Source: a virus
IMG/VR virus record: IMGVR_UViG_3300030117_006141
Coordinates: 15,616 to 79,615 of that record
Length of the DNA: 64,000 nt
Strand: one strand, 5' to 3'
Of this stretch, positions 34,128 through 53,839 are shown piece by piece (positions within the stretch are counted from its first letter, which is position 1; each line of letters opens with the position of its first letter). The notes under the pieces were generated by a model. That model saw only the letters and a list, made by a program, of their open reading frames with translations, ran no database searches and was not told the DNA's origin. The position numbers were made by a program, and so were the translations under genes.

Positions 34128-34162
34128 ACTATATTATACAAAAATTATTTGAATTATCCAAA

Positions 34163-36440: not shown

Positions 36441-36473
36441 AACTAGGGTGGACTGGAATTACCTAAATATAAC

Positions 36474-36908
36474 CTACTTGATTGTTATAGTCTTTGGTTT
36501 GCTTTCTTCAGACACAGGCACCTGTATCATTAATAAACCATTTTGCATTGATGCATTGATTGTGGTAAGATCATACTTTGGACTTACCTTCCATCCCATA
36601 TCAAAACTTCTTCTAGCTATACCCTTATGGATATAATCATTAGCTTCTATATTTGAAGGGTTTGATTCAACTGATGGTTTTTTATAAGCAACCTTCAAAG
36701 TATTGCCTTCAGTTGTAATACTGATATCGTCTTTCTCTAATCCAACGCAAGCGATATCAAAACATAATTCACCCATATCATTAGTATAAATGTCTACAGG
36801 GTAATTAGGTTTCTGTTCCACAAATGATTGGAACATTGATTCATTGTCAAAAAAATTTCTGAATAATAGGTCCGTTGGTAAGAACCTCTCTTGTAAGAAT
36901 GTTGTCAT
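36474..36908 (-). CDS. hsp20: Small heat-shock protein (Hsp20/alpha-crystallin)
   Basis: YPVDI...IACVGLEKDDISI...YIHKGIARRSF...ASMQNGLLMI. Confidence 0.92.
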   Translation of the reverse strand: MTTFLQERFLPTDLLFRNFFDNESMFQSFVEQKPNYPVDIYTNDMGELCFDIACVGLEKDDISITTEGNTLKVAYKKPSVESNPSNIEANDYIHKGIARRSFDMGWKVSPKYDLTTINASMQNGLLMIQVPVSEESKPKTITIK

Positions 36909-36986
36909 AATTAAATCTCCTTAAATAATTTAATGTTAATATAAGGCGTCATCCAGTCCACCTTTATTATAATTATATGTTAACCT

Positions 36987-37583
36987 CTATTTTAGATCAA
37001 ATATGTAAGTATGCAATTCTTCTCCTTCTCTCATAGTAGTTCTATACTCATAAGAAGTTACGCCTCTCACAGCTTCAATCATTTCTTTTGCTTTATCTAA
37101 TATTGTTATCTCATTTGAAGACAAAGCTAATTTGTCATTTATAACAGTCATTTGGAGTGAACCTGTTTTAGAACCCGGGGTGTCAACAAGATCATCGGGT
37201 AATAACGATTTGCCCTTCTCCAGTCTATCCGTATAATAATGTTTTAGTTTAATAGACAATGATTCCCACCATTTTGCAAATTCGGGTTTAGAGTTCTTAA
37301 ACCATTCAGCTGCTTCATCGTCAGTCAATGCATCCCATACCTCATTAACGTCTGGTAGATTGTGTTCGAGGTGTTTGAACCAATTTATAATCCTATCATA
37401 AGCTTTCTTTTCACTAGATAACCCTGTTGTGTATATAGCATTATATGGTCTGGTAGGATCGAACGTCATCCGTTTATTTGGGTAAGACTTCTTTGGATTA
37501 ATATACTCAACAAAAGTCCAATCCTTATATTTGAATTTGTTTAACATATTATCTTCCCATGTTCCGTTATTATCTGTTATCAT
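36987..37583 (-). CDS. Hypothetical protein
   Basis: 198-aa ORF immediately downstream of the tmRNA. Confidence 0.55.
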   Translation of the reverse strand: MITDNNGTWEDNMLNKFKYKDWTFVEYINPKKSYPNKRMTFDPTRPYNAIYTTGLSSEKKAYDRIINWFKHLEHNLPDVNEVWDALTDDEAAEWFKNSKPEFAKWWESLSIKLKHYYTDRLEKGKSLLPDDLVDTPGSKTGSLQMTVINDKLALSSNEITILDKAKEMIEAVRGVTSYEYRTTMREGEELHTYIFDLK

Positions 37584-37599
37584 ACGCAGTAAATTTTAA

Positions 37600-37830
37600 C
37601 CTCTAGCCTCCGGGATTTTGACGACATGATCCCTGTTCGCCGTTGGGTCAGGGTGCCTATCAGGCAGCCATCGCCATTTCAACTTGTTCGCCAGTTGTTA
37701 CGGTGACCTTCCTTATATCCTTATCATCCTGTCAAATCCGATCATCCCCATGTCGTAAATATCTTTTAGTGGAGATGGAGGGAATCGAACCCTCGTCCAA
37801 GAATGTAGCTAATACAAGTACTAGCGGTCA
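37600..37830 (-). ncRNA. ssrA: Circularly permuted (two-piece) tmRNA
   Basis: Minus strand order: T-arm GAGGGTTCGATTCCCTC + CATCTCC-A (ends 37770), 20-nt intervening segment, 5' end GGGGATG...GGATTTGAC (starts 37749, G3-U70 pair), then tag GGC GAA CAA GTT GAA ATG GCG ATG GCT GCC TGA TAG (37692-37660) = GEQVEMAMAA. Outer ends approximate. Confidence 0.9.
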
Positions 37831-37841
37831 TATATAAATAT

Positions 37842-38084
37842 CTACTTCTTCCTTAATAATTTAACTAGTTTGGCACATTTTTCATATTCCTCTGTTCCGG
37901 TAAAGTAATCTATTAAACTATTAATAGCCTCTTTACCCTCCGGATCGTCTAACATCCAATACGCTTCAGGTAGGCTGTCCCAGTCATAACCTTTAATTAT
38001 AAAGTCATATGTATTACGCATTGCTTCATCAGCCAATTCCTGATCAAGCTCATTATTCTCCATGTCTTTATAAAAGTCTTCCAT
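37842..38084 (-). CDS. Small protein with UVR-like (UvrB/C) motif
   Basis: C-terminal LIDYFTGTEEYEKCAKL. Confidence 0.55.
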   Translation of the reverse strand: MEDFYKDMENNELDQELADEAMRNTYDFIIKGYDWDSLPEAYWMLDDPEGKEAINSLIDYFTGTEEYEKCAKLVKLLRKK

Positions 38085-38097
38085 ATATTAATAAATA

Positions 38098-38502
38098 TTA
38101 AGTAAGTAGTTTATTTACACCATTATGTTTTTTATATATAGCATTAATTTTTTGTAAGCTAGATTTACTAAAAACCTCATGGCTTTTGTTTCCTAAGAAA
38201 CTTTGCATAAGAAATAATATATCTGATAATTCCTTTCTATCATTTTTATATTCATCTATATCAAAATTATTATGCCCCTCGGCTAATATAATATTTTTCT
38301 TTACTAATGATATAGCCTTTTTAGTCTTATCAATATATTCATTCGTACTTAAATCGGGTGAGGCAAATGAATCCAGGATCCCATTTACAGAATCACTGAA
38401 TCCACTACCCGTATTTATATTAGATAAAGCATCTGCTTTATCCTGTGCCTCTAACATCTTATCAGCGAGCCTAGTTAACTTTTTTCTTTTTTGCTCTTCC
38501 AT
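38098..38502 (-). CDS. Hypothetical protein
   Basis: 134-aa ORF. Confidence 0.5.
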   Translation of the reverse strand: MEEQKRKKLTRLADKMLEAQDKADALSNINTGSGFSDSVNGILDSFASPDLSTNEYIDKTKKAISLVKKNIILAEGHNNFDIDEYKNDRKELSDILFLMQSFLGNKSHEVFSKSSLQKINAIYKKHNGVNKLLT

Positions 38503-38686
38503 TGTATCTCTTCTTATAAGGCTTATTACTTCTTTTAGGTAACTGCTCTTTAATAAGCTTAGTGATTAATGTTTTATCTAATAAGTCTGCTTGTAGCATT
38601 CCCATCTTCTTACGGACATAAACTGCTACTGCTATTGCTCCTGCAATAAATCCAATTATAAATAATAAAATATAATTTAGTATCAT
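38471..38686 (-). CDS. Small membrane protein
   Basis: N-terminal TM, basic tail. Confidence 0.5.
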   Translation of the reverse strand: MILNYILLFIIGFIAGAIAVAVYVRKKMGMLQADLLDKTLITKLIKEQLPKRSNKPYKKRYNGRAKKKKVN

Positions 38687-38705
38687 ATCATTCTAACTCC
38701 TTTCT

Positions 38706-39056
38706 TTAAAAATTAAACGTTCCTCCAGTAGGCATCTCAGATCTTTTATCTTCGATGATTCCCATTCTCTTGGCTTTAGCATAAACATCTTTGAGTGCAT
38801 GACATGCCTCCATAATTTTATTAGCCTCTGTCCAAGTTACTTCATGCTTCTTACCATCTATTAATATATAACCCATAGTTGGTTGTGTAGCATCTCCCAT
38901 AGGAGTTTGGTTTCCATATCTTAATTTGTATCCAATGGAACTCCATAGTTTACCATACCTCCCAGGATTGAATGGTTTCTTTTGATTGTGTTTAATTGGT
39001 AGTCTACTTCCTGGTCCTCTACCTTCTCTTCTGATTCGATTATTATATCTCTTCAT
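38706..39056 (-). CDS. Hypothetical basic protein
   Basis: 116-aa ORF. Promoter at 39105-39136. Confidence 0.5.
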   Translation of the reverse strand: MKRYNNRIRREGRGPGSRLPIKHNQKKPFNPGRYGKLWSSIGYKLRYGNQTPMGDATQPTMGYILIDGKKHEVTWTEANKIMEACHALKDVYAKAKRMGIIEDKRSEMPTGGTFNF

Positions 39057-39138
39057 CTTATTTTAGCATTAAGGGGGCAAGCCGGTCTTAGTTAATAATA
39101 TATTTTAATATAAAAAATTTTTTTGAATTATCCAAATT

Positions 39139-39453
39139 TTATTTGACTTTTCTTGATATACTATCTAAGTCAAACATCTTGGAATTTCTTTTGATTGTGT
39201 GCTGGGCGTGACAACATACGGATGCATTTCGCCATGCCTCAAATACGGAATTAAATTTATTGGGGAACCCCTCATCTGAATCCGTTATGATATTTTTTCC
39301 ATTCTCCGTTATGAAGAATCTTCCGTCCGGTGTTCCTTGTGTTGCAGCATTTGGGAATTTTCTTAATACTGCTTTCTTGTACAATTCGAATTGCGCTCTT
39401 TTGTCTATTTCATTAGAACGTCTTCCTAAAAACCTTAAATTTCTTTTTTTCAT
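39139..39453 (-). CDS. Hypothetical protein
   Basis: 104-aa ORF. Confidence 0.5.
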   Translation of the reverse strand: MKKRNLRFLGRRSNEIDKRAQFELYKKAVLRKFPNAATQGTPDGRFFITENGKNIITDSDEGFPNKFNSVFEAWRNASVCCHAQHTIKRNSKMFDLDSISRKVK

Positions 39454-39468
39454 ATTTATTTATTTTGT

Positions 39469-39503
39469 GGTATTACCCCCCACCAATAGATGGGGGGCTT
39501 TAC
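39469..39503. other. Strong GC hairpin downstream of the omp/membrane-protein pair (terminator or mRNA stabiliser)
   Basis: CCCCCC-ACCAATAGAT-GGGGGG. No clear U-tract on the minus strand. Confidence 0.55.
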
Positions 39504-39517
39504 CTATTTAATATTCA

Positions 39518-39742
39518 TTACTTCTTCGTGAAGAATGAAGCTAGTATAACTAGTACGACTAGTCCGATGAATCCACCATTACCTAAAGTAGTTAACAGTG
39601 AAGTCATATTACCGACTACGTCCATTCCTAGAACACTAGTCCCAGTCAATACGTACCATAAAATTGCTAGCGGTATTAATCCCATAAAGATTGTTCCCAA
39701 TCCTGAGAAGAAACCATTTACCATTTTAAATACTGAATCCAT
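39518..39742 (-). CDS. Small inner-membrane protein
   Basis: Likely start MDSVFK at 39742 with AAGGAG upstream. Two hydrophobic Gly-rich helices. Confidence 0.65.
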   Translation of the reverse strand: MDSVFKMVNGFFSGLGTIFMGLIPLAILWYVLTGTSVLGMDVVGNMTSLLTTLGNGGFIGLVVLVILASFFTKK

Positions 39743-39804
39743 AATAATTCTCCTTTTGTTTTTCAAATTAATAATTAATGAAGAGCATTAAATTATTTAT
39801 TTAA

Positions 39805-40215
39805 TTAAAACTTAAAACCAAACCCTAATGTAAGGTTTGTAGTTTTAGTTCCCGTGTTATAAACGACTTTTGGATCTACGTAAATGTTACTTCTTAAAGT
39901 AAATAATTTACCAGCTCCGAATGACATACCATCCGTAGATAGTCCGTCAGTTTCTAAATAAGCAAAATATCCTTTCACAAAATATCTTGCGTGGAAATCT
40001 ACATCCATATCCACTGTCGAATCCGCTTGGCTTACTGAAGCACCTACCATAAGGTTTTCCATTACACCGTAGCCGATTGTTGGAGATACTGACCACTCAG
40101 TCCAAGCTGTATTAGCTACATCACCTGTTCCCACGTACCAGTCTCCTGCTGTTTGTGCTTGTGCACCGATTAACGTCGCAATTGTTAATGCGAATGTTAA
40201 AATTAAGTTTCTCAT
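39805..40215 (-). CDS. Outer-membrane beta-barrel protein
   Basis: Signal peptide ending AQA, alternating beta-strands, C-terminal LGFGFKF (terminal Phe BAM signal). Confidence 0.8.
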   Translation of the reverse strand: MRNLILTFALTIATLIGAQAQTAGDWYVGTGDVANTAWTEWSVSPTIGYGVMENLMVGASVSQADSTVDMDVDFHARYFVKGYFAYLETDGLSTDGMSFGAGKLFTLRSNIYVDPKVVYNTGTKTTNLTLGFGFKF

Positions 40216-40410
40216 ATTTGTTCTCCTAATTTCTTTTTACTTGTTTTGTCGCTCTTCATTTTTAATGTCAATACCATACTTTCTTATAAACTAACCTGAT
40301 TAATAAAACATTGATTATTCCCTACACACTGGTTGATACACCGAATAAATTGTGTGTTTCGGTTTTAGAATTTATGATATATATTTTTCATCTATTATAC
40401 ATATATAGAC

Positions 40411-40650
40411 TTATTTTTTAATATTCGTTTTGTTATTATCTTTTATAAATTTTTCTATCATTTCTGATACACGTAACCATAATTTGTCATCCCGTTTACT
40501 ATTCAAAACCTCATTACATACTTCAGATGCCAAGCTATCATCGGACACATATGCGTCAGCTGTAAAGATATTTTTTATACTATCTATACCATGTGTCTGA
40601 TATTTCTCTATCATTGTATCAGTCATTACCCACCTTTTATGAAAGCCCAT
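40411..40650 (-). CDS. Hypothetical protein
   Basis: 79-aa ORF (MGFHKR...). Confidence 0.5.
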   Translation of the reverse strand: MGFHKRWVMTDTMIEKYQTHGIDSIKNIFTADAYVSDDSLASEVCNEVLNSKRDDKLWLRVSEMIEKFIKDNNKTNIKK

Positions 40651-40897
40651 AATACTTCTCCTTCATTTGTTTAAGCTTACCACATTTCTCATACTCTTCG
40701 GTCTTTATGAAATACTCCATTAGATTATTCAATTCCTTTCTTACCTTATATGGGCCACCCTTAATGATATCCACTTTACCATTCTGATCATATTCCTCAA
40801 CCAGGATATCATATAGTTGATTATTGATTTCATATACCGCTTCGTCTATTGAGTTCAGCAGATCCTCGTGTGTTATATTTTTACCGTTTATATTCAT
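40637..40897 (-). CDS. Small protein with UVR-like motif (paralog of 37842-38084)
   Basis: LMEYFIKTEEYEKCGKL. Confidence 0.55.
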   Translation of the reverse strand: MNINGKNITHEDLLNSIDEAVYEINNQLYDILVEEYDQNGKVDIIKGGPYKVRKELNNLMEYFIKTEEYEKCGKLKQMKEKYYGLS

Positions 40898-41147
40898 ATC
40901 CTTCCTTCTTCATAAAAGTTAATATCTTCTTACCAATATACGAATCGATATCCACCATATTCTGATCTTCATTATCATTGAATATCACTCTATCTACATT
41001 CCCATCTTCATCGCGATAGTCTGTAACTAGGTATTTAACATCTACACCATCTGCGTCCTCTAATAGGATACGATAATCAGTATTATAGTGGGCTTCTGAT
41101 GAAGTCCATTTATCTGTTAATGTAAATTTTGCTTTTCTTGTAATCAT
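40881..41147 (-). CDS. Hypothetical protein
   Basis: 88-aa ORF. Confidence 0.5.
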   Translation of the reverse strand: MITRKAKFTLTDKWTSSEAHYNTDYRILLEDADGVDVKYLVTDYRDEDGNVDRVIFNDNEDQNMVDIDSYIGKKILTFMKKEGYEYKR

Positions 41148-41151
41148 ATTA

Positions 41152-43224
41152 TTATTTTTTTAGAAATAGTTTATTAAGTGTTTTGGCTAATTGAATTAAC
41201 GCATTAACATCAATCGTCTCTGCATCTCTCCCATACATCATTTGGAAGTTTCGAGATCCATAATCTCCTCTTGAAGATATAAAGTAACTTAATACTTTAA
41301 TACCCATCTTTTTAATATCGTTAACCCTTTTTCTTGTATGCTCTGCAGCAGGCTCTCCACCATAGTAGAATCCTTTTGGATTAGCATAAGGCTCTCCATC
41401 ACTAAAGTTAATAAAGTAACTATCCATGTTAGCAGAACTCTGAACCATTATATCTTTAATGGCCTCAAAACATAAACCTTCAGGTGTTAATCCACCAGGA
41501 GATAAATGCTTAAATAATCTTTGGATCTTATTAACATTGTCTGTTCTAGAATCATAGGCCATAAGAACCAATGGAACTTGATTCTGAGTAGTTCTGTAAG
41601 ATATCTGAACATGAATGTTATCGATCATAGAAGCAGCCTTAGCAATAGCTACAGCAGCGATCTGTGTCTTTTCCCATTTAGTTCCACCCATCGATCCACT
41701 AGCATCAATACTAAGGTGAATGTTGGCTGGATTATATTTATCACACATTGTCTGTGTAAAGATTCTCTCTGCGCCAAATCCTAAACTAGCAATTAATCTC
41801 TTATCAATCTTACCAGACTCTAATCTTGTAAACTTAGTGTTTCTTTCTTCACTTCTAACTTTAAGCTTCTTACCAAGCATACGACCCAATCTAAGACCGG
41901 CATTAATATTACCTTGCATATCTTCTCTTTCATATGTTCGAGATACTATATTACTAATAGTTCCTGAATCGATTACTCTCTGACTAAAGTTCTTAATAAC
42001 GATAACATCAGTAGAGCTACCCTTAGAGTGATAGTAGCTTTCATAGTCTTTACCAACTTCTTTAATCTCTGATCCAGATTCTTCTAACGATTGTAATTTT
42101 TTATAATCAGCCTTAGTAATTTTTTTCTTTCTAATATCACCATCTAAGAAATCTTCTTGTTTCTTTATAGCTCTTTTTACTTTAGATTTTTGTGCATCAG
42201 ACAATTCAGGTAAATCATCTGTAGGTGTACACCCGCCTCTTTGGCCTCCACTACTCTTCTTAGCTTCACCTCCCTCAGCTTTGGATCCATCATCATTAGA
42301 TTGACCTTCTGGAGTTTTAGCTTCTTTAGTTCCATTTGGATTAGAACAACTAGCACCTTCTCCCTGACAATCTTTTTCCTCTTCACCTTCTCCCTGACAA
42401 TCTGTATCTTCAGTTGTAGGTGTAGGTAAGTTTCTTTCTACTATTCTAAATATATCAAATGCAACCTCTAATGCTTCATCAGAATTCTTTAATCTACTAA
42501 TACATCTTAAATTAATAGTATTCCAGATATTCATAAATCCAGGTAATGCATTTAGATCACGATTCTCATTTGTGATATTACATATTCTAAACATATAAGA
42601 ATCCCAAGTAAGCTCTCTATACTCTTTAGAAGCTAGAGCTTTATCAATCGACTTATCATTAAAGTATTTATTATATAATGCATGATAGTATCCTTTATAA
42701 CCAGGAGCCGATGTAAATATAAAATTATCAATACGTCTATCTTCTATAATATTTAATAACTGTCTAACTTTACTTACAATATAATTCTCAACCATCCATT
42801 TAGCATCGCTATCATCCTTATCTGAAAAGTATTTATCTTTAATCATTTCCTTAATAGAATTTGGAATAACCATATCCGAGCTTTGTATCAAATCTCTTAA
42901 TGTATTAAAGTTAGTTAACTTAATATGAGAACCCTCATGTAAAGCTAAACCAACAGCAGAATCAAATTCCTTCTCATTTAGATTAGCAGATATAACTACT
43001 CTCTCACCATCAGTATAAGAATCACCACGTTGATCAAATGTAACAGGTATATCTTTACCCGTAACTAAATTTACGAAATTAGCAATAGCTCTTCTATAAC
43101 TAGCTAATCTAATTAAGTGAGCAGTATTATCTTTTGATACTTCTCCAGTTAATACATCGATATCATCATTTAGAAAGTTATCGCTTAACCAGAAACTTGA
43201 ATTGTTGTAATTTGTGTTTAACAT
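41152..43224 (-). CDS. HExxH metallopeptidase-like + vWA domain protein (CobT-like MoxR partner)
   Basis: LALHEGSH, NIIEDRRID, acidic/Gly linker, MIDAS IDASGSM, TPEG, FSDGEP. Confidence 0.85.
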   Translation of the reverse strand: MLNTNYNNSSFWLSDNFLNDDIDVLTGEVSKDNTAHLIRLASYRRAIANFVNLVTGKDIPVTFDQRGDSYTDGERVVISANLNEKEFDSAVGLALHEGSHIKLTNFNTLRDLIQSSDMVIPNSIKEMIKDKYFSDKDDSDAKWMVENYIVSKVRQLLNIIEDRRIDNFIFTSAPGYKGYYHALYNKYFNDKSIDKALASKEYRELTWDSYMFRICNITNENRDLNALPGFMNIWNTINLRCISRLKNSDEALEVAFDIFRIVERNLPTPTTEDTDCQGEGEEEKDCQGEGASCSNPNGTKEAKTPEGQSNDDGSKAEGGEAKKSSGGQRGGCTPTDDLPELSDAQKSKVKRAIKKQEDFLDGDIRKKKITKADYKKLQSLEESGSEIKEVGKDYESYYHSKGSSTDVIVIKNFSQRVIDSGTISNIVSRTYEREDMQGNINAGLRLGRMLGKKLKVRSEERNTKFTRLESGKIDKRLIASLGFGAERIFTQTMCDKYNPANIHLSIDASGSMGGTKWEKTQIAAVAIAKAASMIDNIHVQISYRTTQNQVPLVLMAYDSRTDNVNKIQRLFKHLSPGGLTPEGLCFEAIKDIMVQSSANMDSYFINFSDGEPYANPKGFYYGGEPAAEHTRKRVNDIKKMGIKVLSYFISSRGDYGSRNFQMMYGRDAETIDVNALIQLAKTLNKLFLKK

Positions 43225-43258
43225 ATCTTATTTATTTATATAATAAATATACGAACTA

Positions 43259-43381
43259 TTATTGACTTTTCCTACCGATTCCATAAAAAGTTATGAACAA
43301 TACTACGATAAATACTACTACCTTTAGTACTATTCTTAATTCGTTTACCTGTAGGCCTGGATCTCCGTTTAATTCAAACAT
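43259..43381 (-). CDS. Small membrane peptide (40 aa)
   Basis: Manual translation MFELNGDPGLQVNELRIVLKVVVFIVVLFITFYGIGRKSQ. Own promoter at 43403-43434. Confidence 0.4.
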   Translation of the reverse strand: MFELNGDPGLQVNELRIVLKVVVFIVVLFITFYGIGRKSQ

Positions 43382-43512
43382 ATTTATTAATTATTTATAA
43401 TATAAATATACGTAAAATATTTCACTTTTCCAAATATTTTCGCAGGTTTTTTCGGGTGGCGAGGCGAAAGTTATGAACCGCGCGGAGCGCGCCGTAAGCC
43501 CCGACGTATATA

Positions 43513-43710
43513 TTATTTATCATTATGATAATATCCTTCGGGTTCGTTCTCCATTCTTATAAATTCTCCGAGGGATACCATTACTTGAACATACTCATTA
43601 GGTTCATACATATCCTTAAATTTATTATTGGTAGTATGGTATTCAGTGATGTTATTATTAATAAGATCCTCCTTGAGAACCCATATAACTACTTGTTTAA
43701 TATTCGCCAT
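43513..43710 (-). CDS. Hypothetical protein
   Basis: 65-aa ORF. Confidence 0.45.
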   Translation of the reverse strand: MANIKQVVIWVLKEDLINNNITEYHTTNNKFKDMYEPNEYVQVMVSLGEFIRMENEPEGYYHNDK

Positions 43711-43964
43711 ATCTTATTTAATTCTTTCATTTGGTATTTTAATAAACTGGAACTACTTGATGAGAACAAGACCTCTCTACATTCATGGAATAAATCTGGT
43801 ATAGTATCTACATCATATTCGGCACTACTCATTTTATCAGGATTATCTATTATATACGACCATATACGTAATAACTTCATATATTGATTAGAGTTATTAT
43901 ATATAGGAGTACCTACAGACATAGGAGGTTTAATAGTATGATCTTGTTTAATATACTTACTCAT
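43689..43964 (-). CDS. Hypothetical protein
   Basis: 91-aa ORF. Confidence 0.45.
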   Translation of the reverse strand: MSKYIKQDHTIKPPMSVGTPIYNNSNQYMKLLRIWSYIIDNPDKMSSAEYDVDTIPDLFHECREVLFSSSSSSLLKYQMKELNKIWRILNK

Positions 43965-44139
43965 CTTTATTATCTTTACTACCTGTAATATTATTAAGAG
44001 CCTTCTCGAATAGGTCTCTAGTCTCCATATGGGGATGTTCGTCCCTTAGCCTATTAGTCTCTTTATCAAATTGCTTATTGACGCCAAGGCGATTCACTTC
44101 CTCCATAATGTGTATTAATTTATCTTCCCAATGTCCCAT
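43957..44139 (-). CDS. Hypothetical protein
   Basis: Likely start MGHWED at 44139. Confidence 0.45.
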   Translation of the reverse strand: MGHWEDKLIHIMEEVNRLGVNKQFDKETNRLRDEHPHMETRDLFEKALNNITGSKDNKDE

Positions 44140-44222
44140 TAATAGTTTCCTTCTCCGTAGGTATATACTTCCCACATACGCAAGACGACATACTACCTAC
44201 TATTATTAATATCGTTATTATT

Positions 44223-44414
44223 CTAATCATTATCTTTTATTTTATTCCAAACCCTTTCATGTATATAATACATTAAAGCACCTGTTACATTCATTATAAG
44301 AGCGTTCCATAAAGGACTGGATGTTAGCAAAGCTGCTAGGATCAAATAACTATTTATTATAGCTATTATTCTCCAACTTACCGTCTTAGAGAAACTCCTC
44401 TTTCTACTATCCAC
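44223..44414 (-). CDS. DUF2061-like membrane protein
   Basis: RKRSFSKTVSWRIIA...YYIHERVWNKI. Confidence 0.7.
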   Translation of the reverse strand: MDSRKRSFSKTVSWRIIAIINSYLILAALLTSSPLWNALIMNVTGALMYYIHERVWNKIKDND

Positions 44415-44695
44415 TATTTGTATTGTTTATACATTCTATTCATTGCAATTAAGTCTTCCTTAGCTACCCTATGATGTACTCCGTATCTCTTTATATCCCT
44501 TAATACACGCTTAACGAAACCACAAGGTCCATTCCTTTCCCTTAATAGAGAATATAACATTGTGATCTTTTCATATAGAGGATGGAATTCATGTGTTATA
44601 TCCCTAGCTACAGTATCTCCATAATCTCCTGGTCCACTAGTGTAGGTGTAGTATCTTCCTACCCTTCCTAGTTCTAAATCGCTCTTTGTTTCCAT
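44414..44695 (-). CDS. Hypothetical protein
   Basis: 93-aa ORF. Promoter at 44702-44733. Confidence 0.5.
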   Translation of the reverse strand: METKSDLELGRVGRYYTYTSGPGDYGDTVARDITHEFHPLYEKITMLYSLLRERNGPCGFVKRVLRDIKRYGVHHRVAKEDLIAMNRMYKQYK

Positions 44696-45077
44696 AGTTG
44701 ATTAATATACAAAATTTATTTTAATTATCCAACACTATTGTTGTTTTTCTTATACTCACACATACTATGTGTAATGTGTGTATGAAACCCATTTGGCAAA
44801 AAAATAGGTTCGCGATATGAATCGGTCAGTGCCTCAAAAAATTTATAAAAACTTTTGGGATGACCCGATAACCTCCCCCACGCGCGAGCTAGGAACTGAA
44901 GTAACCCCTACCCGGGTGAAGTAAATTAACTGTTCATAACTTTTCATATCTTTTTTTATTTATGAATACTTACGAACCACCCTATTGTTCATTACTATAA
45001 TAATGAAGTAGGAAAGGTGAAGTACTATACTGTCTATCTCTATATCGTATGTACTCCACCTCTAGAGTGTTAATCAC

Positions 45078-46229
45078 CTACTCCGCGTCCTCCATATCTT
45101 CGGTATTAAATAGATCCTCATTAGATCCATCGTCACAGTACTTCTGAACTAATTGCTTAACAAACGTTCTCTCACTATCTACTCCTCCGTCGTTACTATA
45201 TTGAGGGTATATAGTTATCTCTGCTGCCTCTCCTAATGTAAAGCCATCATATAGTAGTCCTGCTATCTCTACGGCAGTTCTAGTAGATACCCCAGACTCT
45301 ATACGTCCAGTCTCATTAGCTGCCTCTATACGTGTGTTAGTACATATCTCAGCTACATTATCTAATACCTTACTATCTACCCTTGGATATAATGATTGTA
45401 ATAGATCAGACTCTTCGTCCTTACCTAGTAGGTCTACCTCTATAATAGTAAATCTATCTACTAAGGCTTTATCCATTACTCTAGTACTAGTATATTCGTT
45501 ACCTATATTAGCAGTCGCTATAAAGGTTACTCCGTCAGCTACTTTAATAGTTTCCTGACCTTCAGATTCATCTAGTCTAAGATATCTCTGTCCATAGTCT
45601 AATACAGTCATTAGGATATTCCAAGCATCAGGATGTGCCCTTGATAACTCGTCCATTAGGATTACAGCGTTAGGTGTCTGGATCGCCTTAACGAATAAAG
45701 ACTCGCTAAAGTGTGTGCCCTTCTCCTTGTCGAATTGAACATTACCGATTAGGGTAGCACGAGGATCTTGAGTAGCTCCTAGATTGAAATAGAAGTCAGG
45801 TCGATCCAGACCATTAACTAATGCCTTTGCAGCTAGTGTTTTACCACATCCTGCCGGTCCTACCATCATAATATTCTTACCTCTTACGGCACTTCTTATA
45901 AGGTATTTCCACTTTAACTCAGGCATTTTTAGTGTATTAGGCTTTAGGTCATAAGACGTATTAATGAAATTCATTACCTCTAATTGCTCTTGAGGCACTT
46001 TTTCCGTCTTAGCTGACTCACGATTATGAGCTTTTACAGCCTTATTATACACTGACATTGGTACTTGTTTCCATGTAGTACCTGTAAATTCGATGGCATT
46101 TCCATTATCAGCCACCTTAGATTTCATTTGCGAATACAGTTTTCCTGGTAAACTAGATACAAAATTACCTGTTGCATCCTTTACTTGATACTTACCATCT
46201 ACTCTTTCGACTTTAAATACATTTAACAT
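45078..46229 (-). CDS. MoxR/CobS-like AAA+ ATPase
   Basis: Walker A GPAGCGKT, Walker B ILMDELSRA, FIATAN, MDKALVDRF, STR. Confidence 0.9.
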   Translation of the reverse strand: MLNVFKVERVDGKYQVKDATGNFVSSLPGKLYSQMKSKVADNGNAIEFTGTTWKQVPMSVYNKAVKAHNRESAKTEKVPQEQLEVMNFINTSYDLKPNTLKMPELKWKYLIRSAVRGKNIMMVGPAGCGKTLAAKALVNGLDRPDFYFNLGATQDPRATLIGNVQFDKEKGTHFSESLFVKAIQTPNAVILMDELSRAHPDAWNILMTVLDYGQRYLRLDESEGQETIKVADGVTFIATANIGNEYTSTRVMDKALVDRFTIIEVDLLGKDEESDLLQSLYPRVDSKVLDNVAEICTNTRIEAANETGRIESGVSTRTAVEIAGLLYDGFTLGEAAEITIYPQYSNDGGVDSERTFVKQLVQKYCDDGSNEDLFNTEDMEDAE

Positions 46230-46259
46230 ACACTCTATTTTTTAATTTAACACTCTTTA

Positions 46260-46396
46260 ATAAGAACAGGACCGGGCGCAATTGAGATTTTATGCTAGAT
46301 TAAATTTCTCCTTTTAGCTGTTAGACTCGTCGTCGTGAGCTCCTTTGGCGCATTATTGAGATTTTGCTATTGAATCCTCCCGGATCCCTTTCTTAT
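46260..46396 (-). ncRNA. Candidate structured leader/sRNA upstream of the AAA+ gene
   Basis: Closing stem ATAAGAAAGGGATCCGGG / CCCGGTCCTGTTCTTAT. Two internal copies of TAGCA..AAAATCTCAAT..TGCGCC. Starts just downstream of promoter 46405-46436. Confidence 0.55.
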
Positions 46397-46404
46397 TTAT
46401 ATTA

Positions 46405-46765
46405 TAAATATACGAACTTTTTCGCACATATACAACCTTTTTCTCAGTTATTTTTATAAAGTTATGAACAATCCGAATATAATAACCACTACTCCGAGGG
46501 TCATATATAGCCTATTCATCTCTTTTTTTCCCTGGTTTAGGTCATCTTCTGTGACTAATGGTGGGAATGGGTTTCTATAGTTTGTAATCATAACTTTAAA
46601 TCTTTATATCTTATATATAAAGATACGTAAAATTTTCCAATTATCCAAATTTTTTGACAGGTTTTTTCAGATTTTTTTGTAATTGTTCATAACTTTTTAT
46701 TATTATTATAGGAATAGTCCTCCCAATATAATATAAATATACGAAAAATAAACGTAATTTCCAAA
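46405..46765 (-). promoter_or_regulatory. Three tandem host-type promoters
   Basis: GTTG-N20-TATATTTA (46405-46436), TTTG-N20-TATCTTTA (46618-46649), TTTG-N20-TATATTTA (46734-46765). Confidence 0.75.
46455..46592 (-). CDS. Small membrane peptide (45 aa)
   Basis: Manual translation MITNYRNPFPP...LGVVVIIFGLFITL. Promoter at 46618-46649. Confidence 0.4.
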
Positions 46766-47248
46766 TTTTTTTGCATAAATCGGCCTGCGATCTACCCTAT
46801 CTTAGACAGTCTAGGACAGGCAATAACACGGGTTGGGTGAATAAGTATACGTCTGGAAGGAGATCTCGCAGTATATCGCCTCTAAATAGCCTTAAATTGA
46901 ATGGATTATAGGACAGGAAGTCCCACCATAAAAAAAAGTTACGAACAATTATTCATAACTTTGTATAGGGTTTTGCTGGGAGGAAAAATGAAAAGGGAGG
47001 GAGGCATGCGTGTGTCAAAATATCAAAAATCTTACATACTAGATACCAAAAATACGTAGATAAGTATCTGGTTTATCATATTATCGTATACATTGTAATT
47101 AGGGATCCTAAATAGCTAGGAGGAATATAGCTATCATCATTATGATATAGATGGCTGGTGTTATGTCTATCTTATTAGTCTCGTTCATGTATATAAATAG
47201 GCAGAATGGTTGCTAGGCTGATGACCTAAACATGAAATTTACATGAAT

Positions 47249-47389
47249 TTAATGGTTCGGGTTCTTCAGGTATTCTCTTATTATATAGATACAGTATGTA
47301 AGGGCTGGTGATCCCATAGCTAATAACCATAGGATTGAGGGATGTCCTTCCCCACATGCTCCGGTAAAGTGTCTTAAAAATTCTATCAT
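47249..47389 (-). CDS. Small membrane peptide (46 aa)
   Basis: Manual translation MIEFLRHFTGACGEGHPSILWLLAM...; overlaps the stop of the upstream ORF (ATGA). Confidence 0.45.
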   Translation of the reverse strand: MIEFLRHFTGACGEGHPSILWLLAMGSPALTYCIYIIREYLKNPNH

Positions 47390-47568
47390 TTGTGTACGTC
47401 CATAAAGTTCTTAACTAATACATATAGTGCCCAAGGCCATGCTAATACTATGAAGAGTCGTTCTCTCCATCCTAGGTAATGCTTTGGGTTATCAGGTTCT
47501 AGGTATAACCAATGTAATATATCTACTATACCCATAAATACTACACCTAATATTAAATATGCTGTCAT
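47386..47568 (-). CDS. Small membrane protein
   Basis: Two hydrophobic segments, WP motif. Confidence 0.5.
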   Translation of the reverse strand: MTAYLILGVVFMGIVDILHWLYLEPDNPKHYLGWRERLFIVLAWPWALYVLVKNFMDVHK

Positions 47569-47814
47569 TTCTTATTTCTTTCTTTTTCTTCTAACTTCTT
47601 TATATTATCTAATAACTTATCATTACTGTCATCACTCATATAACTGGATAGGATTGCCACTACTCCAAATGAGATGATTCCTATTGTTATTATTATTAAT
47701 ATATTTTCCATTATTTTCTCTTTGTGTTCTTATCTATATGTCTTTCTATCTGACTCGATATATACATTCCTAACGCTACTCCTGCGCATAAGATAGTTAA
47801 ATGTGATATTACCA

Positions 47815-48027
47815 TTACTTCCATGATTTAATTATTTCCTTTAGTTTATCTATTAATTCTAATACTTCCTCGGGTTCCATCGTTATCGCACAACATACGT
47901 TAACGTTCTCCTCTATTTCCTCGAGTAATTTTAATGCTTCTTCTTTCATATTATACGGACAATTAGTACATCCATTCTTACAACAATAACCTCTATTTAA
48001 TAAGAATTCCCTGCTTAAAGGTTCCAT
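47815..48027 (-). CDS. DUF5522-like Cys-rich protein
   Basis: FLLNRGYCCKNGCTNCPY. Confidence 0.6.
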   Translation of the reverse strand: MEPLSREFLLNRGYCCKNGCTNCPYNMKEEALKLLEEIEENVNVCCAITMEPEEVLELIDKLKEIIKSWK

Positions 48028-48278
48028 TATATATCAAGATCATCATCTACTTGTCTAATGATATGGTCGTAAACGAATTTACTCCAACATTTCTTTATTT
48101 TATTATATAGTCTTCTCATTTATCTATACTCAAATATAATACGATAGATGCCACAAATAAACAACCACATAAATACAATACTAATCCCATTTATCTTGAT
48201 CTTTCTTTGCTTTATATAACAATAGTCCTATTATAGTAGGGATGGCTAACATTGTTACCACCATTAATATATCTTCTA

Positions 48279-48752
48279 TTATTCCCATATTGTATCTCCA
48301 TCATTACCTATCCACATCTTCTCTTCATCGGACTCTAATAAATCATATAAATCTGATCTATTCCAATCTCTGTCGGAAGGTTCATATTGTCCATACTCAC
48401 TCTTACCTTCTTTACCATGATACTCTTCTTTAACATGATATACATGCCATATTGTATCTCCGTAGATATCTAACCATATTTTTCTTCCATCCTTATAGAA
48501 GGAGGAAAGGAAGGTGGTATCTTCCCATTCTTCATACACACCATCACCATCGATATCTATTATATTACCATAACTTACCGAATCCACCGCAATAACGCTG
48601 TCAAGCGTAGGGGCGAGATTTTTCGGGGCTTCCGGTTTTCGATGAGCCTCGCACGAATGCTTGCAACTTGTCATCATAATTAGCATCATAGTAAAAAATA
48701 CTATTGCAATTAATAAAAATACCTGTACCGAATTTTTTAATAACTTTCTCAT
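48279..48752 (-). CDS. Putative lipoprotein
   Basis: Basic N-terminus, hydrophobic stretch, lipobox-like MTSC. DIDGDG Ca-binding-like loop. Confidence 0.55.
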   Translation of the reverse strand: MRKLLKNSVQVFLLIAIVFFTMMLIMMTSCKHSCEAHRKPEAPKNLAPTLDSVIAVDSVSYGNIIDIDGDGVYEEWEDTTFLSSFYKDGRKIWLDIYGDTIWHVYHVKEEYHGKEGKSEYGQYEPSDRDWNRSDLYDLLESDEEKMWIGNDGDTIWE

Positions 48753-48825
48753 AATCTTATCTTATTTATTTATATAATAAATATACGTAAAATAAATGAC
48801 TTATCCAAATATTTTCGCAGGTTTT

Positions 48826-48981
48826 TTAGAAAGACCAACCAAAATTTAAGACAATGAATCTACCCTTACCTGAGCTGAAATCTACCTTAAATTCTAGAAT
48901 TGTAAATCTACCTAGTCTAATCTCTAATGAGATAACGTCGTCTTGTTTGTTACCTTTTCTCCAAGAATTAATCCAATTCAT
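48826..48981 (-). CDS. Small hypothetical protein (51 aa)
   Basis: Manual translation MNWINSWRKGNKQDD...FIVLNFGWSF. Confidence 0.45.
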   Translation of the reverse strand: MNWINSWRKGNKQDDVISLEIRLGRFTILEFKVDFSSGKGRFIVLNFGWSF

Positions 48982-48985
48982 AATT

Positions 48986-49348
48986 TTACTCCTTTTTATC
49001 TGTTATTGTTTCTATTTCTAACTGACTATCTTCGTTAGTATATTTATCTTTTACTATATCTGCATCTTGTAACATATCTTCTAATGACCAACCATCAGGT
49101 CCATCGATATCATCAAGTGTTCCTTCGTTATATTTATCATCTATTAATTGTATGATTTCATCTTCCGATAATCCCTTAAACTCTGGATAATCCTCTGTGT
49201 TGATCTCCAATACTCTCCAAGATGTATTTGTATACCACTCTGTCTTTATTAATTTTAATTTTGTCATAACTATCTCATTTCCATAATCTCCCGCCTCTCT
49301 GGATCTTATTATTCCTGTATCGGGATTTCGTTCATAAATTTTTGCCAT
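48986..49348 (-). CDS. Hypothetical acidic protein
   Basis: 120 aa, N-terminal KIYERNPDTG. Confidence 0.5.
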   Translation of the reverse strand: MAKIYERNPDTGIIRSREAGDYGNEIVMTKLKLIKTEWYTNTSWRVLEINTEDYPEFKGLSEDEIIQLIDDKYNEGTLDDIDGPDGWSLEDMLQDADIVKDKYTNEDSQLEIETITDKKE

Positions 49349-49369
49349 AAGTAACCGTGCTATATTATA

Positions 49370-49696
49370 TTAGTCTTCTATTGTTAAACTACCTTTATTC
49401 TTCCAACTGTCCCACGCCTTATCAAATCGTCTATCCGTTGATGATATAACACCATTTACACGATCTATATATTCCTTCCTCTGTTCATCTAATTTTCTGT
49501 AGATATCATTTTGAACTTCGTTTCTTTCCCTAACACAATCCTCTATAATTCTTTTGATCTCTACATCATGATCTATAAGTTCCATTCTTAGATCATCTAC
49601 TTCGTTAATTTTTCTTTCCAACCTAACCACTCCAAAAAACGCGTAGCATATTGCACACACTAGTAAAGTAATCAGCACTGTTAAAATTATATCCAT
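49370..49696 (-). CDS. Membrane-anchored coiled-coil protein
   Basis: N-terminal TM, coiled coil. Bracketed by a 16-bp inverted repeat. Confidence 0.55.
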   Translation of the reverse strand: MDIILTVLITLLVCAICYAFFGVVRLERKINEVDDLRMELIDHDVEIKRIIEDCVRERNEVQNDIYRKLDEQRKEYIDRVNGVISSTDRRFDKAWDSWKNKGSLTIED

Positions 49697-49704
49697 ATCT
49701 TTTC

Positions 49705-49928
49705 TCCGTATTATTTAAGCACGGCTACTTATGTTAAAAATAAAGGCTCTTGGTCGGTTAAATAAGCCAATTAGCATTGTGAGGACTTTTAACCTTAACA
49801 TCCTATACCACGTGAAGGTGGCCTTTGTCATAGGACTACGGAAGTCTGATTGGTGTGAGGCTGCTTTCAGCTGATGCCGGTCTTAGCCATACTGACACAC
49901 TCTTTTTCACGTCCCTTCCGTATTATTT
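49705..49928 (-). ncRNA. Candidate structured cis-regulatory RNA / ncRNA
   Basis: GC-richer intergenic segment with nested stems TACGGAAG/CTTCCGTA, GTGTG/CACAC, CCTAT/ATAGG, CCAC/GTGG, ATGTTAA/TTAACAT, GGTTAAA/TTTAACC. Confidence 0.5.
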
Positions 49929-49932
49929 TTTA

Positions 49933-51432: not shown

Positions 51433-51616
51433 TTTACGTTTTCCCTGAACCTTTATAACGTTTACTATTATAAATATGTCGCACCAGTGCAAATAGAGCA
51501 GCACAAATCGCTACCATAAATCCACCTATTATATTATATATAAAATAAGCTCCTCGCATACCCCAATATATAAATCCTAGACATAATATTATACTTATCA
51601 TTTAATTTTATTTTTG

Positions 51617-51690
51617 TGGAGAATATCGGAGTCGAACCGATGACCTCTTGGATGCAAACCAAGCGCTCTAGCCAGCTGAGCTAATTCCCC
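51617..51690 (-). tRNA. tRNA-Ala(UGC)
   Basis: GGGGAATTAGCTCAGCTGGCTAGAGCGCTTGGTTTGCATCCAAGAGGTCATCGGTTCGACTCCGATATTCTCCA. G3-U70, anticodon TGC, CCA not fully encoded. Confidence 0.95.
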
Positions 51691-53735: not shown

Positions 53736-53770
53736 ATCTATATCTTTAATTAACACTCTTATTTATAATA

Positions 53771-53835
53771 TAAATATACGTAAAATAATTGAATTATCCA
53801 AATATTTTAACAGGTTTTTTCAAAAGTTATGAACA
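53771..53835 (-). promoter_or_regulatory. Host-type (Bacteroidota -33/-7) promoter plus upstream TGTTCATAAC box; exemplar of a 15-copy family
   Basis: TTTG-N20-TATATTTA. Same spacing at 10900, 34131, 36164, 39105, 43244, 43403, 44702, 46405, 46618, 46734, 48778, 50523, 52392, 54592. Confidence 0.8.
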
Positions 53836-53839
53836 ATTT

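Follow-up and report, generated by a model that had tools for sequence, protein, structure and literature searches.

To our knowledge, few bacterial messages have been described whose two ends pair intramolecularly, and each of these comes from a single organism. In the hok mRNA of plasmid R1, a toxin message, the fold-back element (tac/fbi) pairs the 5' end with the 3' end so that the whole mRNA is closed; this structure is backed by covariation across homologues, and trimming of the 3' end triggers refolding and antisense control. The flanks of a whole functional RNA also pair over a long distance in the RNase III stalks of rRNA operons, and the early mRNAs of phage T7 are cut at double-stranded sites which are local hairpins between genes. 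[quoted passage not shown] 2013, PMC3868564). The PeSL cassettes of T4-type phages consist of a promoter and a local hairpin, and are repeated to either side of genes as similar copies that recombine (Arbiol et al. 2010, PMC2839356; Comeau et al. 2014, PMC4122927). In this study, we have explored an uncultured marine phage and its relatives, in which we found, as in hbs and icaR, complementary leader and post-stop segments of the same gene; their pairing is kept here by compensatory change. Based on our results, we consider it likely that these conserved, gene-specific helices between the 5' leader and the 3' flank of the mRNA control the stability or processing of the message and, in the case of moxR, its translation as well.

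Four arm pairs and their chance baseline

The window is a stretch of 64,000 nucleotides from the 79.6-kb genome of this phage, a 43%-complete fragment whose host is probably a member of the Bacteroidota. The four arm pairs listed in the initial annotation were all found on the minus (mRNA) strand, exactly where it had placed them (Table 1). They amount to 11 bp for hsp20, 10 bp and a G-U for the omp-like gene (hereafter omp), 16 bp including one G-U for a gene of 108 aa, and 10 bp for moxR. The arm sequence differs for each pair, neither arm folds locally, and no repeat family was seen among the pairs, in agreement with the earlier view that they are not a mobile repeat.

Table 1. Genes, arms and associated elements on the minus strand of the window
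Feature	Coordinates	Strand	Basis
hsp20 coding sequence, 144 aa	36474..36908	-	ORF list; Pfam HSP20 E=8e-13; PHROG 432
hsp20 5' arm GGUGGACUGGA, 43 nt upstream of AUG	36952..36962	-	sequence; MFE and centroid fold of whole message; covarying arms at homologous position in relatives
hsp20 3' arm UCCAGUCCACC, 16 nt past stop, 6 nt before AUG of next ORF	36447..36457	-	sequence, folds, relatives
GCCU, predicted extension of hsp20 closing helix with AGGU at 36461-36464 over an internal loop	36944..36947	-	MFE and centroid structures (prediction only)
Putative promoter-like site TTGATC-17-TATAAT, then a second TATAAT, ending a few nt before hsp20 5' arm	36966..37000	-	consensus scan
omp-like gene, 136 aa, signal peptide, no family match	39805..40215	-	ORF list, sequence, family searches
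omp 5' arm AAUGAAGAGC(G)	40250..40260	-	sequence; same relative position, other sequences in relatives
omp 3' arm (U)GCUCUUCAUU	39777..39787	-	sequence, relatives
moxR, MoxR/AAA_5-type ATPase gene, 383 aa	45078..46229	-	family search
moxR proximal 5' partner AUAGAGUGUA, last base is the A of AUG; pairing kept in relatives	46229..46238	-	sequence, relatives
moxR distal 5' arm AGAGUGUUAA (arm of the initial annotation), second AGAGUGU copy, could compete for the same 3' arm	46247..46256	-	sequence
moxR 3' arm UUAACACUCUA, 4-7 nt past stop	45063..45073	-	sequence, relatives
108-aa gene, N-terminal hydrophobic helix, no known family	49370..49696	-	ORF list, family searches, 203 homologues
108-aa gene 5' arm CAUAAGUAGCCGUGCU, begins 2 nt past U-run of a conserved upstream non-coding element	49718..49733	-	sequence, fold
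108-aa gene 3' arm AGCACGGUUACUUAUG, contains AUG of ORF 48986-49348	49346..49361	-	sequence, fold; E=-30.1, beyond all 8190 mismatched pairs

For every gene, we set the pairing energy between its own 60-nt upstream and 40-nt downstream flanks against that of 8190 mismatched pairs in the 79.6-kb genome. Most of the 91 genes follow this null; hsp20 and the 108-aa gene alone are outliers, at -30.1 kcal/mol each, where the lowest mismatched pair reaches -25.3, and the closing stem is present in the MFE and centroid folds of both messages of the window. Those of omp and moxR stand at the 1.7th percentile of this mismatched set, which is expected by chance among 91 genes, and they do not rise above it when judged within this genome alone. 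Pairing of start regions showed no genome-wide enrichment in this genome. Taken by gene, only hsp20 exceeds the null in three large relative contigs; in the present genome it is joined by the 108-aa gene and, marginally, by moxR. A survey of 1075 ORFs from related loci showed recurrent GC-containing clamps only in hsp20, in omp and in a small number of moxR genes, and no further gene with flanking pairing turned up in these ORFs or in the three large relative contigs. The feature is gene-specific and restricted to a few genes; it is not a genome-wide strategy that closes each cistron, as had been proposed.

Pairing in the relatives

Complementarity of the arms is kept through compensatory change in many relatives, as the initial annotation had anticipated, and this comparison supports conserved pairing for hsp20, omp and the 108-aa gene. 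In 65 of 88 distinct related loci overall, and in 39 of the 42 loci from IMG/VR, hsp20 is flanked by perfect arms no shorter than 10 bp (10-18 bp in the 65 loci); the helices of hsp20 measure 11-20 bp. These loci carry at least nine unrelated families of arm sequence, with compensatory changes inside clades. RNAalifold predicted the closing stem unprompted from whole-message alignments of two hsp20 clades, and the covariation was stronger than in 500 of 500 shuffles and in all slid controls. In a syntenic genome pair with Hsp20 proteins 73% identical, the arms are wholly different, as are the immediate neighbour genes. Homologues of the 108-aa gene at 34-46% identity have helices of ~30 bp with a different sequence (-26 to -36 kcal/mol), within which T-A to G-C compensation is seen. 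The transcript records of relatives consist of metatranscriptome contigs, a type of record from which RNA ends cannot be read.

The two remaining genes show shorter pairings (8-13 bp across about 450 nt) which are thermodynamically marginal. In the relatives of omp, short arms occupy conserved positions in at least eight sequence versions, and in 33% of 54 loci the gene's own pair ranks with the top 5% of unrelated pairs. A conserved hairpin with a U-rich tail lies at the end of the omp coding sequence and could terminate transcripts ahead of the 3' arm. For moxR, covariation concerns another pair than the one first listed: the relatives conserve pairing of the SD-to-AUG region (46238-46229) with the 3' flank (45070-45063) through the AUG-adjacent AGAGTGT copy, this pairing tracks the spacer sequence, and the own start region and own 3' flank fall in the best 2%, as compared with the 3' flanks of other genes, in 39% of 54 loci. 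No counterpart of the distal arm was found in relatives, and chance is the simplest reading for it. Finally, the helix is dispensable, since arms are missing from roughly one in four hsp20 loci and from omp homologues at greater distance.

The initial annotation had also argued, from G-U positions, for selection at the RNA level. Selection on complementarity is supported, and is most simply understood as acting on RNA of the mRNA strand; the G-U argument is weak when taken alone, because any transition mismatch is a G-U on one strand or the other, and it holds only in the 108-aa family. There, G-U makes up 43 of 265 pairs (16%), in 9 of 9 loci the sense strand has an advantage of 13 kcal/mol over the antisense strand, and the helix collapses on the opposite strand or as DNA. 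For hsp20, wobble counts among distinct arms (5 G-U versus 2 A-C) leave the strand undecided, and the energy gap between sense and antisense is not above that of mismatched controls.

A proposed role for the helices and its alternatives

Since the arms stay pairable while their letters change in dozens of relatives, they most likely tie the ends of the message into an RNA helix. The stretch in the leader would pair with the stretch just past the stop of the same gene, and the whole cistron would therefore become the loop of a helix; we infer that the two arms share a transcript and pair in vivo, as well as what the helix does. Two forms occur. In the first (hsp20, omp and the 108-aa gene), the 5' arm lies upstream of the ribosome-binding site and the 3' arm 3-20 nt past the stop, and the helix may protect or define both ends of the message, either as a shield against end-dependent nucleases or as a double-stranded processing site, and would therefore set the lifetime of the message. 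In most hsp20 families the 5' arm stands a few nt past a promoter-like box, close to the presumed 5' end of the message: such a box ends 3-16 nt ahead of the 5' arm in 34 of 64 loci. This placement is not general, because in the largest hsp20 clade the 5' arm directly abuts the upstream gene, without a promoter-like box. Promoter-like consensus sites were not in excess over shuffles in our scan, and the motif ACATATAATTATAATAAAGG from the hsp20 site also precedes another gene. In the second form (moxR), the 3' flank would pair with the SD-to-AUG region, which should hold back translation and could create a site for RNase III, as in icaR.

A T-run directly succeeds the 3' arm in the two largest hsp20 clades, ahead of the promoter-like box of the next gene, and the helix may also help to end transcription there. 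Taken as the main function, this would make the arms the halves of a split intrinsic terminator with the gene in its loop, perhaps inserted there at some time, whose job is to end transcription after the gene. That the 5' arm is often preceded by A's, and that at least six T lie within the 8 nt past the 3' arm in 25 of 64 hsp20 loci, fits this idea, which we nevertheless regard as unlikely: the remaining arm families, that of the window included, are without a T-run, at least two of them (L005 and L123) have a normal local terminator past the 3' arm, and a search for "empty" hairpins built from the same arms gave only unrelated hairpins in unrelated large contigs. An intrinsic (Rho-independent) terminator as such was rejected on account of a loop of ~450-500 nt, far beyond the range of these elements, a U-run confined to two hsp20 clades, and a scan that placed no canonical terminator at the arms.

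Another possibility would be a translation switch, in which the helix decides whether ribosomes reach the enclosed gene, or makes the downstream gene depend on it by hiding that next gene's start codon. The moxR pairing is of this kind, the 3' arm of the 108-aa gene in the window includes the AUG of the next ORF, and a terminating ribosome, given its footprint, would open 3' arms that begin 3-10 nt past the stop. Against it, over 33 arm types the predicted accessibility of the hsp20 SD-to-AUG region stays the same whether the helix is present (0.49), the 3' arm is mutated (0.48) or a 5' fragment is folded (0.51), and the majority of hsp20 and omp loci have the next start at least 30 nt past the 3' arm, behind its own promoter-like box; we hold such a switch to be improbable. 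We are equally doubtful of a more far-reaching reading, in which a dedicated RNA-processing route of the phage would recognize its targets by these helices: selected accessory cistrons would be cut from longer transcripts at the helix and kept as end-paired, or even end-joined, long-lived messages, with a double-strand-specific nuclease and possibly a ligase-like enzyme encoded elsewhere on this genome as the agents. If true, the phage would possess a system that privileges particular messages.

A feature of the DNA itself is very improbable, whether the arms are taken as terminal inverted repeats of a small mobile cassette, as the limits of an invertible segment or as two sites bound by a DNA-looping protein. 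A gene set between inverted repeats is what one classically expects of such elements, and hsp20 does lie in a variable region whose neighbours differ among genomes. However, a site recognized by a protein would keep its sequence, and one gene family is surrounded here by at least nine unrelated arm sequences with base-by-base compensation; hsp20 has the same orientation as its neighbours in 51 of 51 loci; the G-U content and strand preference of the 108-aa helices point to RNA; and no transposase or invertase gene was noted among the hsp20-adjacent ORFs, as compared between genomes rather than screened against family libraries. Transposon terminal inverted repeats and an invertible segment were rejected on the diversity of the arms and the constant orientation of the loci. 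Lastly, chance complementarity of AT-rich intergenic DNA, which would account for the percentile of the omp and moxR pairs, for overall own-flank energies equal to the null and for start regions without enrichment, is scarcely credible as a whole, being refuted for hsp20 and contradicted by the two outliers and by pairing of all four gene families in relatives despite changed sequences.

Relation to described systems

A helix that probably acts on message stability or processing would mean that phage accessory genes can bring along their own post-transcriptional control. Compensatory evolution has kept the same architecture in three or four unrelated gene families and at more than 100 loci of uncultured phages, and the loci of the relatives form a natural mutational series in which to test the effect of end-pairing on a prokaryotic mRNA. 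Such elements are missed by genome annotation and RNA family libraries because their arms have no conserved sequence and stand ~500 nt apart.

We found no published report of the hsp20 helix for a DNA phage. The initial annotation went too far in knowing of no similar named system, in view of the intramolecular 5'/3'-UTR pairing of hbs and icaR, and of that in the hok mRNA. The PeSL cassettes resemble the present case in that regulatory motifs frame single accessory genes located in the variable parts of large phage genomes; they were rejected as an identification, the arm pairs here being unique and complementary across the gene, without local folding or a repeat family. The stalks of rRNA operons are longer than the helices described here (8-20 bp, and ~30 bp in the 108-aa relatives). 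An RNase III stalk calls for roughly two helical turns of double-stranded RNA, to be compared with 11-20 bp in hsp20 and ~30 bp in the 108-aa relatives; our search of this 43%-complete fragment gave no phage RNase III. As in hok, the 5' and 3' ends of the message would pair, with the support of covariation; unlike hok, nothing in the gene products (Hsp20, a putative barrel, a membrane protein and an ATPase) hints at a toxin-antitoxin system, nor is an antisense RNA evident. The likeness to icaR is found, at the sequence level, in the pairing of the moxR start region with its 3' flank, whereas the 5' arms of hsp20, omp and the 108-aa gene sit upstream of the SD, with the predicted SD accessibility of hsp20 unchanged. 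The hbs mRNA is, with icaR, the closest described case: there, a ~14-bp helix joins the leader of a single short monocistronic transcript to its 3' UTR, and affects access of a nuclease and not the ribosome-binding site. A distinction is that hbs is a single cellular gene with an experimentally proven helix, whereas the pairings described here are known from sequence, in several unrelated phage genes whose arms are wholly different between relatives.

Flank pairing in the window and its distribution among genes

The virus record is linear, 79.6 kb long and an estimated 43% complete, with a G+C content of 33% and nearly all of its genes on the minus strand. The initial annotation had described arms (a leader stretch and its reverse complement past the stop of the same gene) around hsp20, an omp-like gene, a MoxR-type ATPase gene and a gene for a 108-aa membrane protein, and had proposed a phage strategy in which each cistron is closed into a loop. 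All four arm pairs are present in the sequence at the positions described, each does have its own sequence, and no arm has a local partner. For 91 minus-strand genes, we paired the 60-nt stretch upstream of the start codon with the 40-nt stretch downstream of the stop; mismatched pairs drawn from other genes (8190 in total) served as a control that retains the real composition. In bulk, the two sets of duplex energies coincide (mean -9.5 vs. -9.2 kcal/mol), the exceptions being hsp20 and the 108-aa gene, at -30.1 kcal/mol each against -25.3 kcal/mol for the best mismatched pair. The omp and moxR pairs lie at the 1.7th percentile of mismatched pairs; as this is the chance expectation for 91 genes, only the hsp20 and 108-aa pairs would count as real within this genome alone. 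With two outliers here, and with hsp20 as the sole gene to pass the 1% null on three contigs of relatives (75-86 kb), closure of each cistron is ruled out as a genome-wide strategy. Pairing of the start region with the gene's own 3' flank is likewise not enriched across this genome.

Features of the window (- denotes the minus strand)
Feature	Position	Strand	Basis
Promoter-like modules, intergenic (examples)	34128-34162, 43382-43512, 48753-48825, 53757-53839		
hsp20 (144 aa)	36474-36908	-	
Circularly permuted (two-piece) tmRNA, two genes upstream of hsp20	37569-37861	-	ARAGORN and Rfam
omp-like gene (omp)	39805-40215	-	
Hairpin in last omp codons, with U-rich tail overlapping the stop	39819-39839	-	
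MoxR/AAA_5-type ATPase gene (moxR)	45078-46229	-	
108-aa gene	49370-49696	-	
G+C-rich non-coding element	~49735-49930	-	
tRNA-Ala (UGC)	51616-51690	-	ARAGORN and Rfam

The same restriction to a few genes is seen across related loci. Among 382 ORFs of the first 42 loci, arms of at least 12 bp occur around hsp20 only, and when all loci are taken together (1075 distinct ORFs), arms that reach 9 bp and contain four or more G/C number 78 where 3.5 are expected, belonging to hsp20 (63/104), omp (13/57) and moxR (2/66) and to no other gene. The clamp is not a universal property of phage hsp20 either: flanking arms are absent from the hsp20 genes of pelagiphage HTVC115P and cyanophages P-SSM4, S-PM2 and S-H9-1 (L316-L319), whose leaders share the motif ACUCGCUUA (GUCGCUUA in S-H9-1), located some 10-15 nt upstream of the ribosome-binding site. 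The GenBank phage collection yielded no cultured phage relative. A 44% identical hsp20 is present on a 425-kb contig labelled as a Candidatus Pacearchaeota MAG (L123, JBBACR010000001.1); it is flanked by a 12-bp arm pair of its own, and its 3' arm is followed by a canonical terminator. Despite the archaeal binning, the contig more probably represents a large phage or was mis-binned.

Covariation and context of the hsp20 arms

From IMG/VR and marine metagenomes (the latter represented by the best 80 of 529 relatives), we collected 122 hsp20 loci at 52-97% protein identity, giving 88 distinct flank sets. Perfect Watson-Crick arms of 10-18 bp are present in 65 of the 88, lying 28-78 nt upstream of the AUG and 2-21 nt downstream of the stop, and they comprise at least nine unrelated sequences; two syntenic genomes whose Hsp20 proteins share 73% identity carry wholly different arms. 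Covariation of the arms, which had been suggested as a check, is borne out for hsp20. Within clades, compensation proceeds base by base, for example G-C in 10 sequences vs. A-U in 7, and single-mismatch intermediates also occur. When whole message alignments of about 560 nt were given to RNAalifold, the closing stem was predicted unprompted in both large clades; the observed covariation was reached by none of 500 shuffles of these alignments, and sliding the partner by 1-3 columns lowered pairing from 93-98% to 24-56%. The window's own message likewise shows the stem, in both its minimum-energy and its centroid fold. The helix can be lost, since three loci keep the 5' arm before a different downstream region without a 3' arm and about a quarter of the loci have no arms. 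Contigs from close hsp20 relatives are present in one marine metatranscriptome, though contigs cannot show RNA ends.

A recurrent promoter-like box (TATTTATAT or TATAAT-type) lies upstream of the 5' arm in 34 of the 64 hsp20 loci with arms, its end 3-16 nt away from the arm; for the TTGATC-17-TATAAT match of the window, this distance is 9 nt. In those families the arm would therefore open the message. In the largest clade, the 5' arm instead comes straight after the upstream gene's stop codon. Many genes of this genome have the same promoter-like box 15-30 nt from their AUG. A longer intergenic module also recurs (TTTGGATAATT, about 13 nt, TTTTACGTATATTTATATTATAAATAA) and agrees with the -33/-7 promoter type of Bacteroidota (TTTG, about 20 nt, TAnnTTT); strong GGAG ribosome-binding sites are nevertheless common among the genes. 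Two genes upstream of hsp20, the permuted tmRNA encodes the tag peptide GEQVEMAMAA according to ARAGORN and scores 62.3 bits with Rfam tmRNA_permuted (gathering score 47).

On the downstream side, the 3' arm is followed in the two big hsp20 clades by a T-run and then by the promoter-like box of the next gene. For two clades it is possible that the arms originated from a split terminator, but a search for empty sites with the arms of one of the clades (clade A) returned only unrelated hairpins in unrelated large contigs. Such an origin is excluded for the other families, in which the 3' arm is followed at some distance by an ordinary local terminator or, in the window among others, by the next gene within 6-14 nt.

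Pairing around the 108-aa gene, omp and moxR

The 108-aa protein has 203 homologues, with close relatives at 74-89% identity. More distant loci, at 34-46% identity, came from a profile search of IMG/VR and numbered 18, nine of them distinct. In all nine, the two sides of the homologue can form a long-range duplex of about 30 bp (-26 to -36 kcal/mol), unrelated in sequence to the arms of the window. Its 5' strand reaches back into the final codons of the preceding gene, its 3' strand extends as far as the spacer within the promoter-like site that follows, and T-A to G-C compensation occurs among the loci. G-U accounts for 43 of 265 predicted pairs, and in all nine loci the mRNA strand is more stable than the opposite strand by 13 kcal/mol, the clearest sign of selection on the sense-strand RNA. 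The argument from G-U pairs put forward in the initial annotation thus stands for the 108-aa family; in hsp20 and omp, neither wobble pairs nor sense/antisense energies discriminate between the strands. The conserved G+C-rich element adjoining the gene upstream ends in AAGAGCC and a U-run, has no match in Rfam and, by alignment, immediately precedes the hsp20 cassette in several relatives (L023, L025, L039 and L041). The element could represent a small RNA of the phage or a leader travelling with clamped genes.

For omp, 74 loci were found. In those of similar genomic setting, complementarity of 8-13 bp links the leader (28-48 nt upstream of the start codon) to the 3' flank (14-20 nt downstream of the stop), in at least eight sequence versions, one of which shortens both arms by one base in step relative to the window. 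The gene's own pair falls within the best 5% of unrelated leaders and flanks of the set in 33% of 54 loci, and arms are absent from more distant homologues in other contexts. A single consensus fold for all relatives failed because leaders do not align between arm families. The hairpin in the last omp codons is kept in 21 relatives by paired synonymous third-position changes (A-U 11 vs. G-C 9; C-G 10 vs. U-A 7) and may be a terminator or stabiliser within coding sequence. Directly 3' of the 3' arm, most relatives (e.g., L143, L148 and L154) have a small conserved hairpin, GGCA-AUUU-UGCC, absent in the window, with variants that include UGCA...UGCA and GGCA-AUAC-UGCC.

In moxR, the distal arm originally proposed (46256-46247) has no counterpart in relatives, and a leader-vs-flank rank test was flat; we dropped it in favour of a start-region pairing. 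The motif AGAGUGU occurs twice in the moxR leader of the window, in the distal arm and directly before the AUG (46238-46229). In the nearest relatives, the pre-AUG stretch reads ACACACACU and can pair with AGUGUGUGU in the 3' flank, with four compensatory differences from the window. Testing positions -18 to +3 against the own 3' flank, with 3' flanks of other genes from the same loci as null, we found the own pair within the best 2% in 39% of 54 loci; the complementary stretch tracks the individual SD-spacer sequence, beyond a generic anti-SD. The natural reading for moxR is that the 3' flank would occlude the start region. In phages of apparently different hosts, the flank often contains UUCCUUU or CUCCUUU within a G+C-rich terminator-like hairpin (L222, L229-L232, L236, L244-L248, L256, L264 and L276), and by its sequence this motif would serve as an anti-SD for the ribosome-binding site of the same gene.

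Possible role of the helix and known systems

A switch of SD accessibility is ruled out in silico for hsp20, the predicted SD-to-AUG accessibility being the same with the helix (0.49), with a mutated 3' arm (0.48) and in a 5' fragment (0.51). Because the helix leaves it unaffected, our preferred reading is that the helix acts at the two message ends, where it could shield against end-dependent decay or form a double-stranded processing site, and could secondarily serve termination where a U-run follows. In the part of the genome covered by this fragment (an estimated 43%), no phage-encoded RNase III was found. A feature of the DNA instead of an RNA helix fits poorly, given the many unrelated arm sequences around one gene family, the single orientation of hsp20 (51/51 loci), the G-U-rich helix of the 108-aa family and the absence of any noted transposase or invertase in the hsp20-adjoining ORFs, as compared only between genomes. 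The favoured end-of-message role would follow the precedent of hbs, in which a 14-bp pairing between the 5'- and 3'-UTR modulates RNase Y cleavage (PMC5737220).

The window contributes, with the 108-aa family, a second and independent gene family with strong sense-strand G-U support, together with a correction of the moxR pairing from the distal arm to the start region. Our literature search yielded no description of end-paired messages for any DNA phage. Among bacterial mRNAs, intramolecular 5'/3' pairing is known from hbs, icaR and hok. The moxR pairing is arranged like that of icaR, whose 3'-UTR pairs with the SD (PMC3868564). PeSL cassettes also frame accessory genes, in T4-type phages (PMC2839356, PMC4122927), but these are local hairpins in repeated copies, whereas the arms described here pair across the gene.
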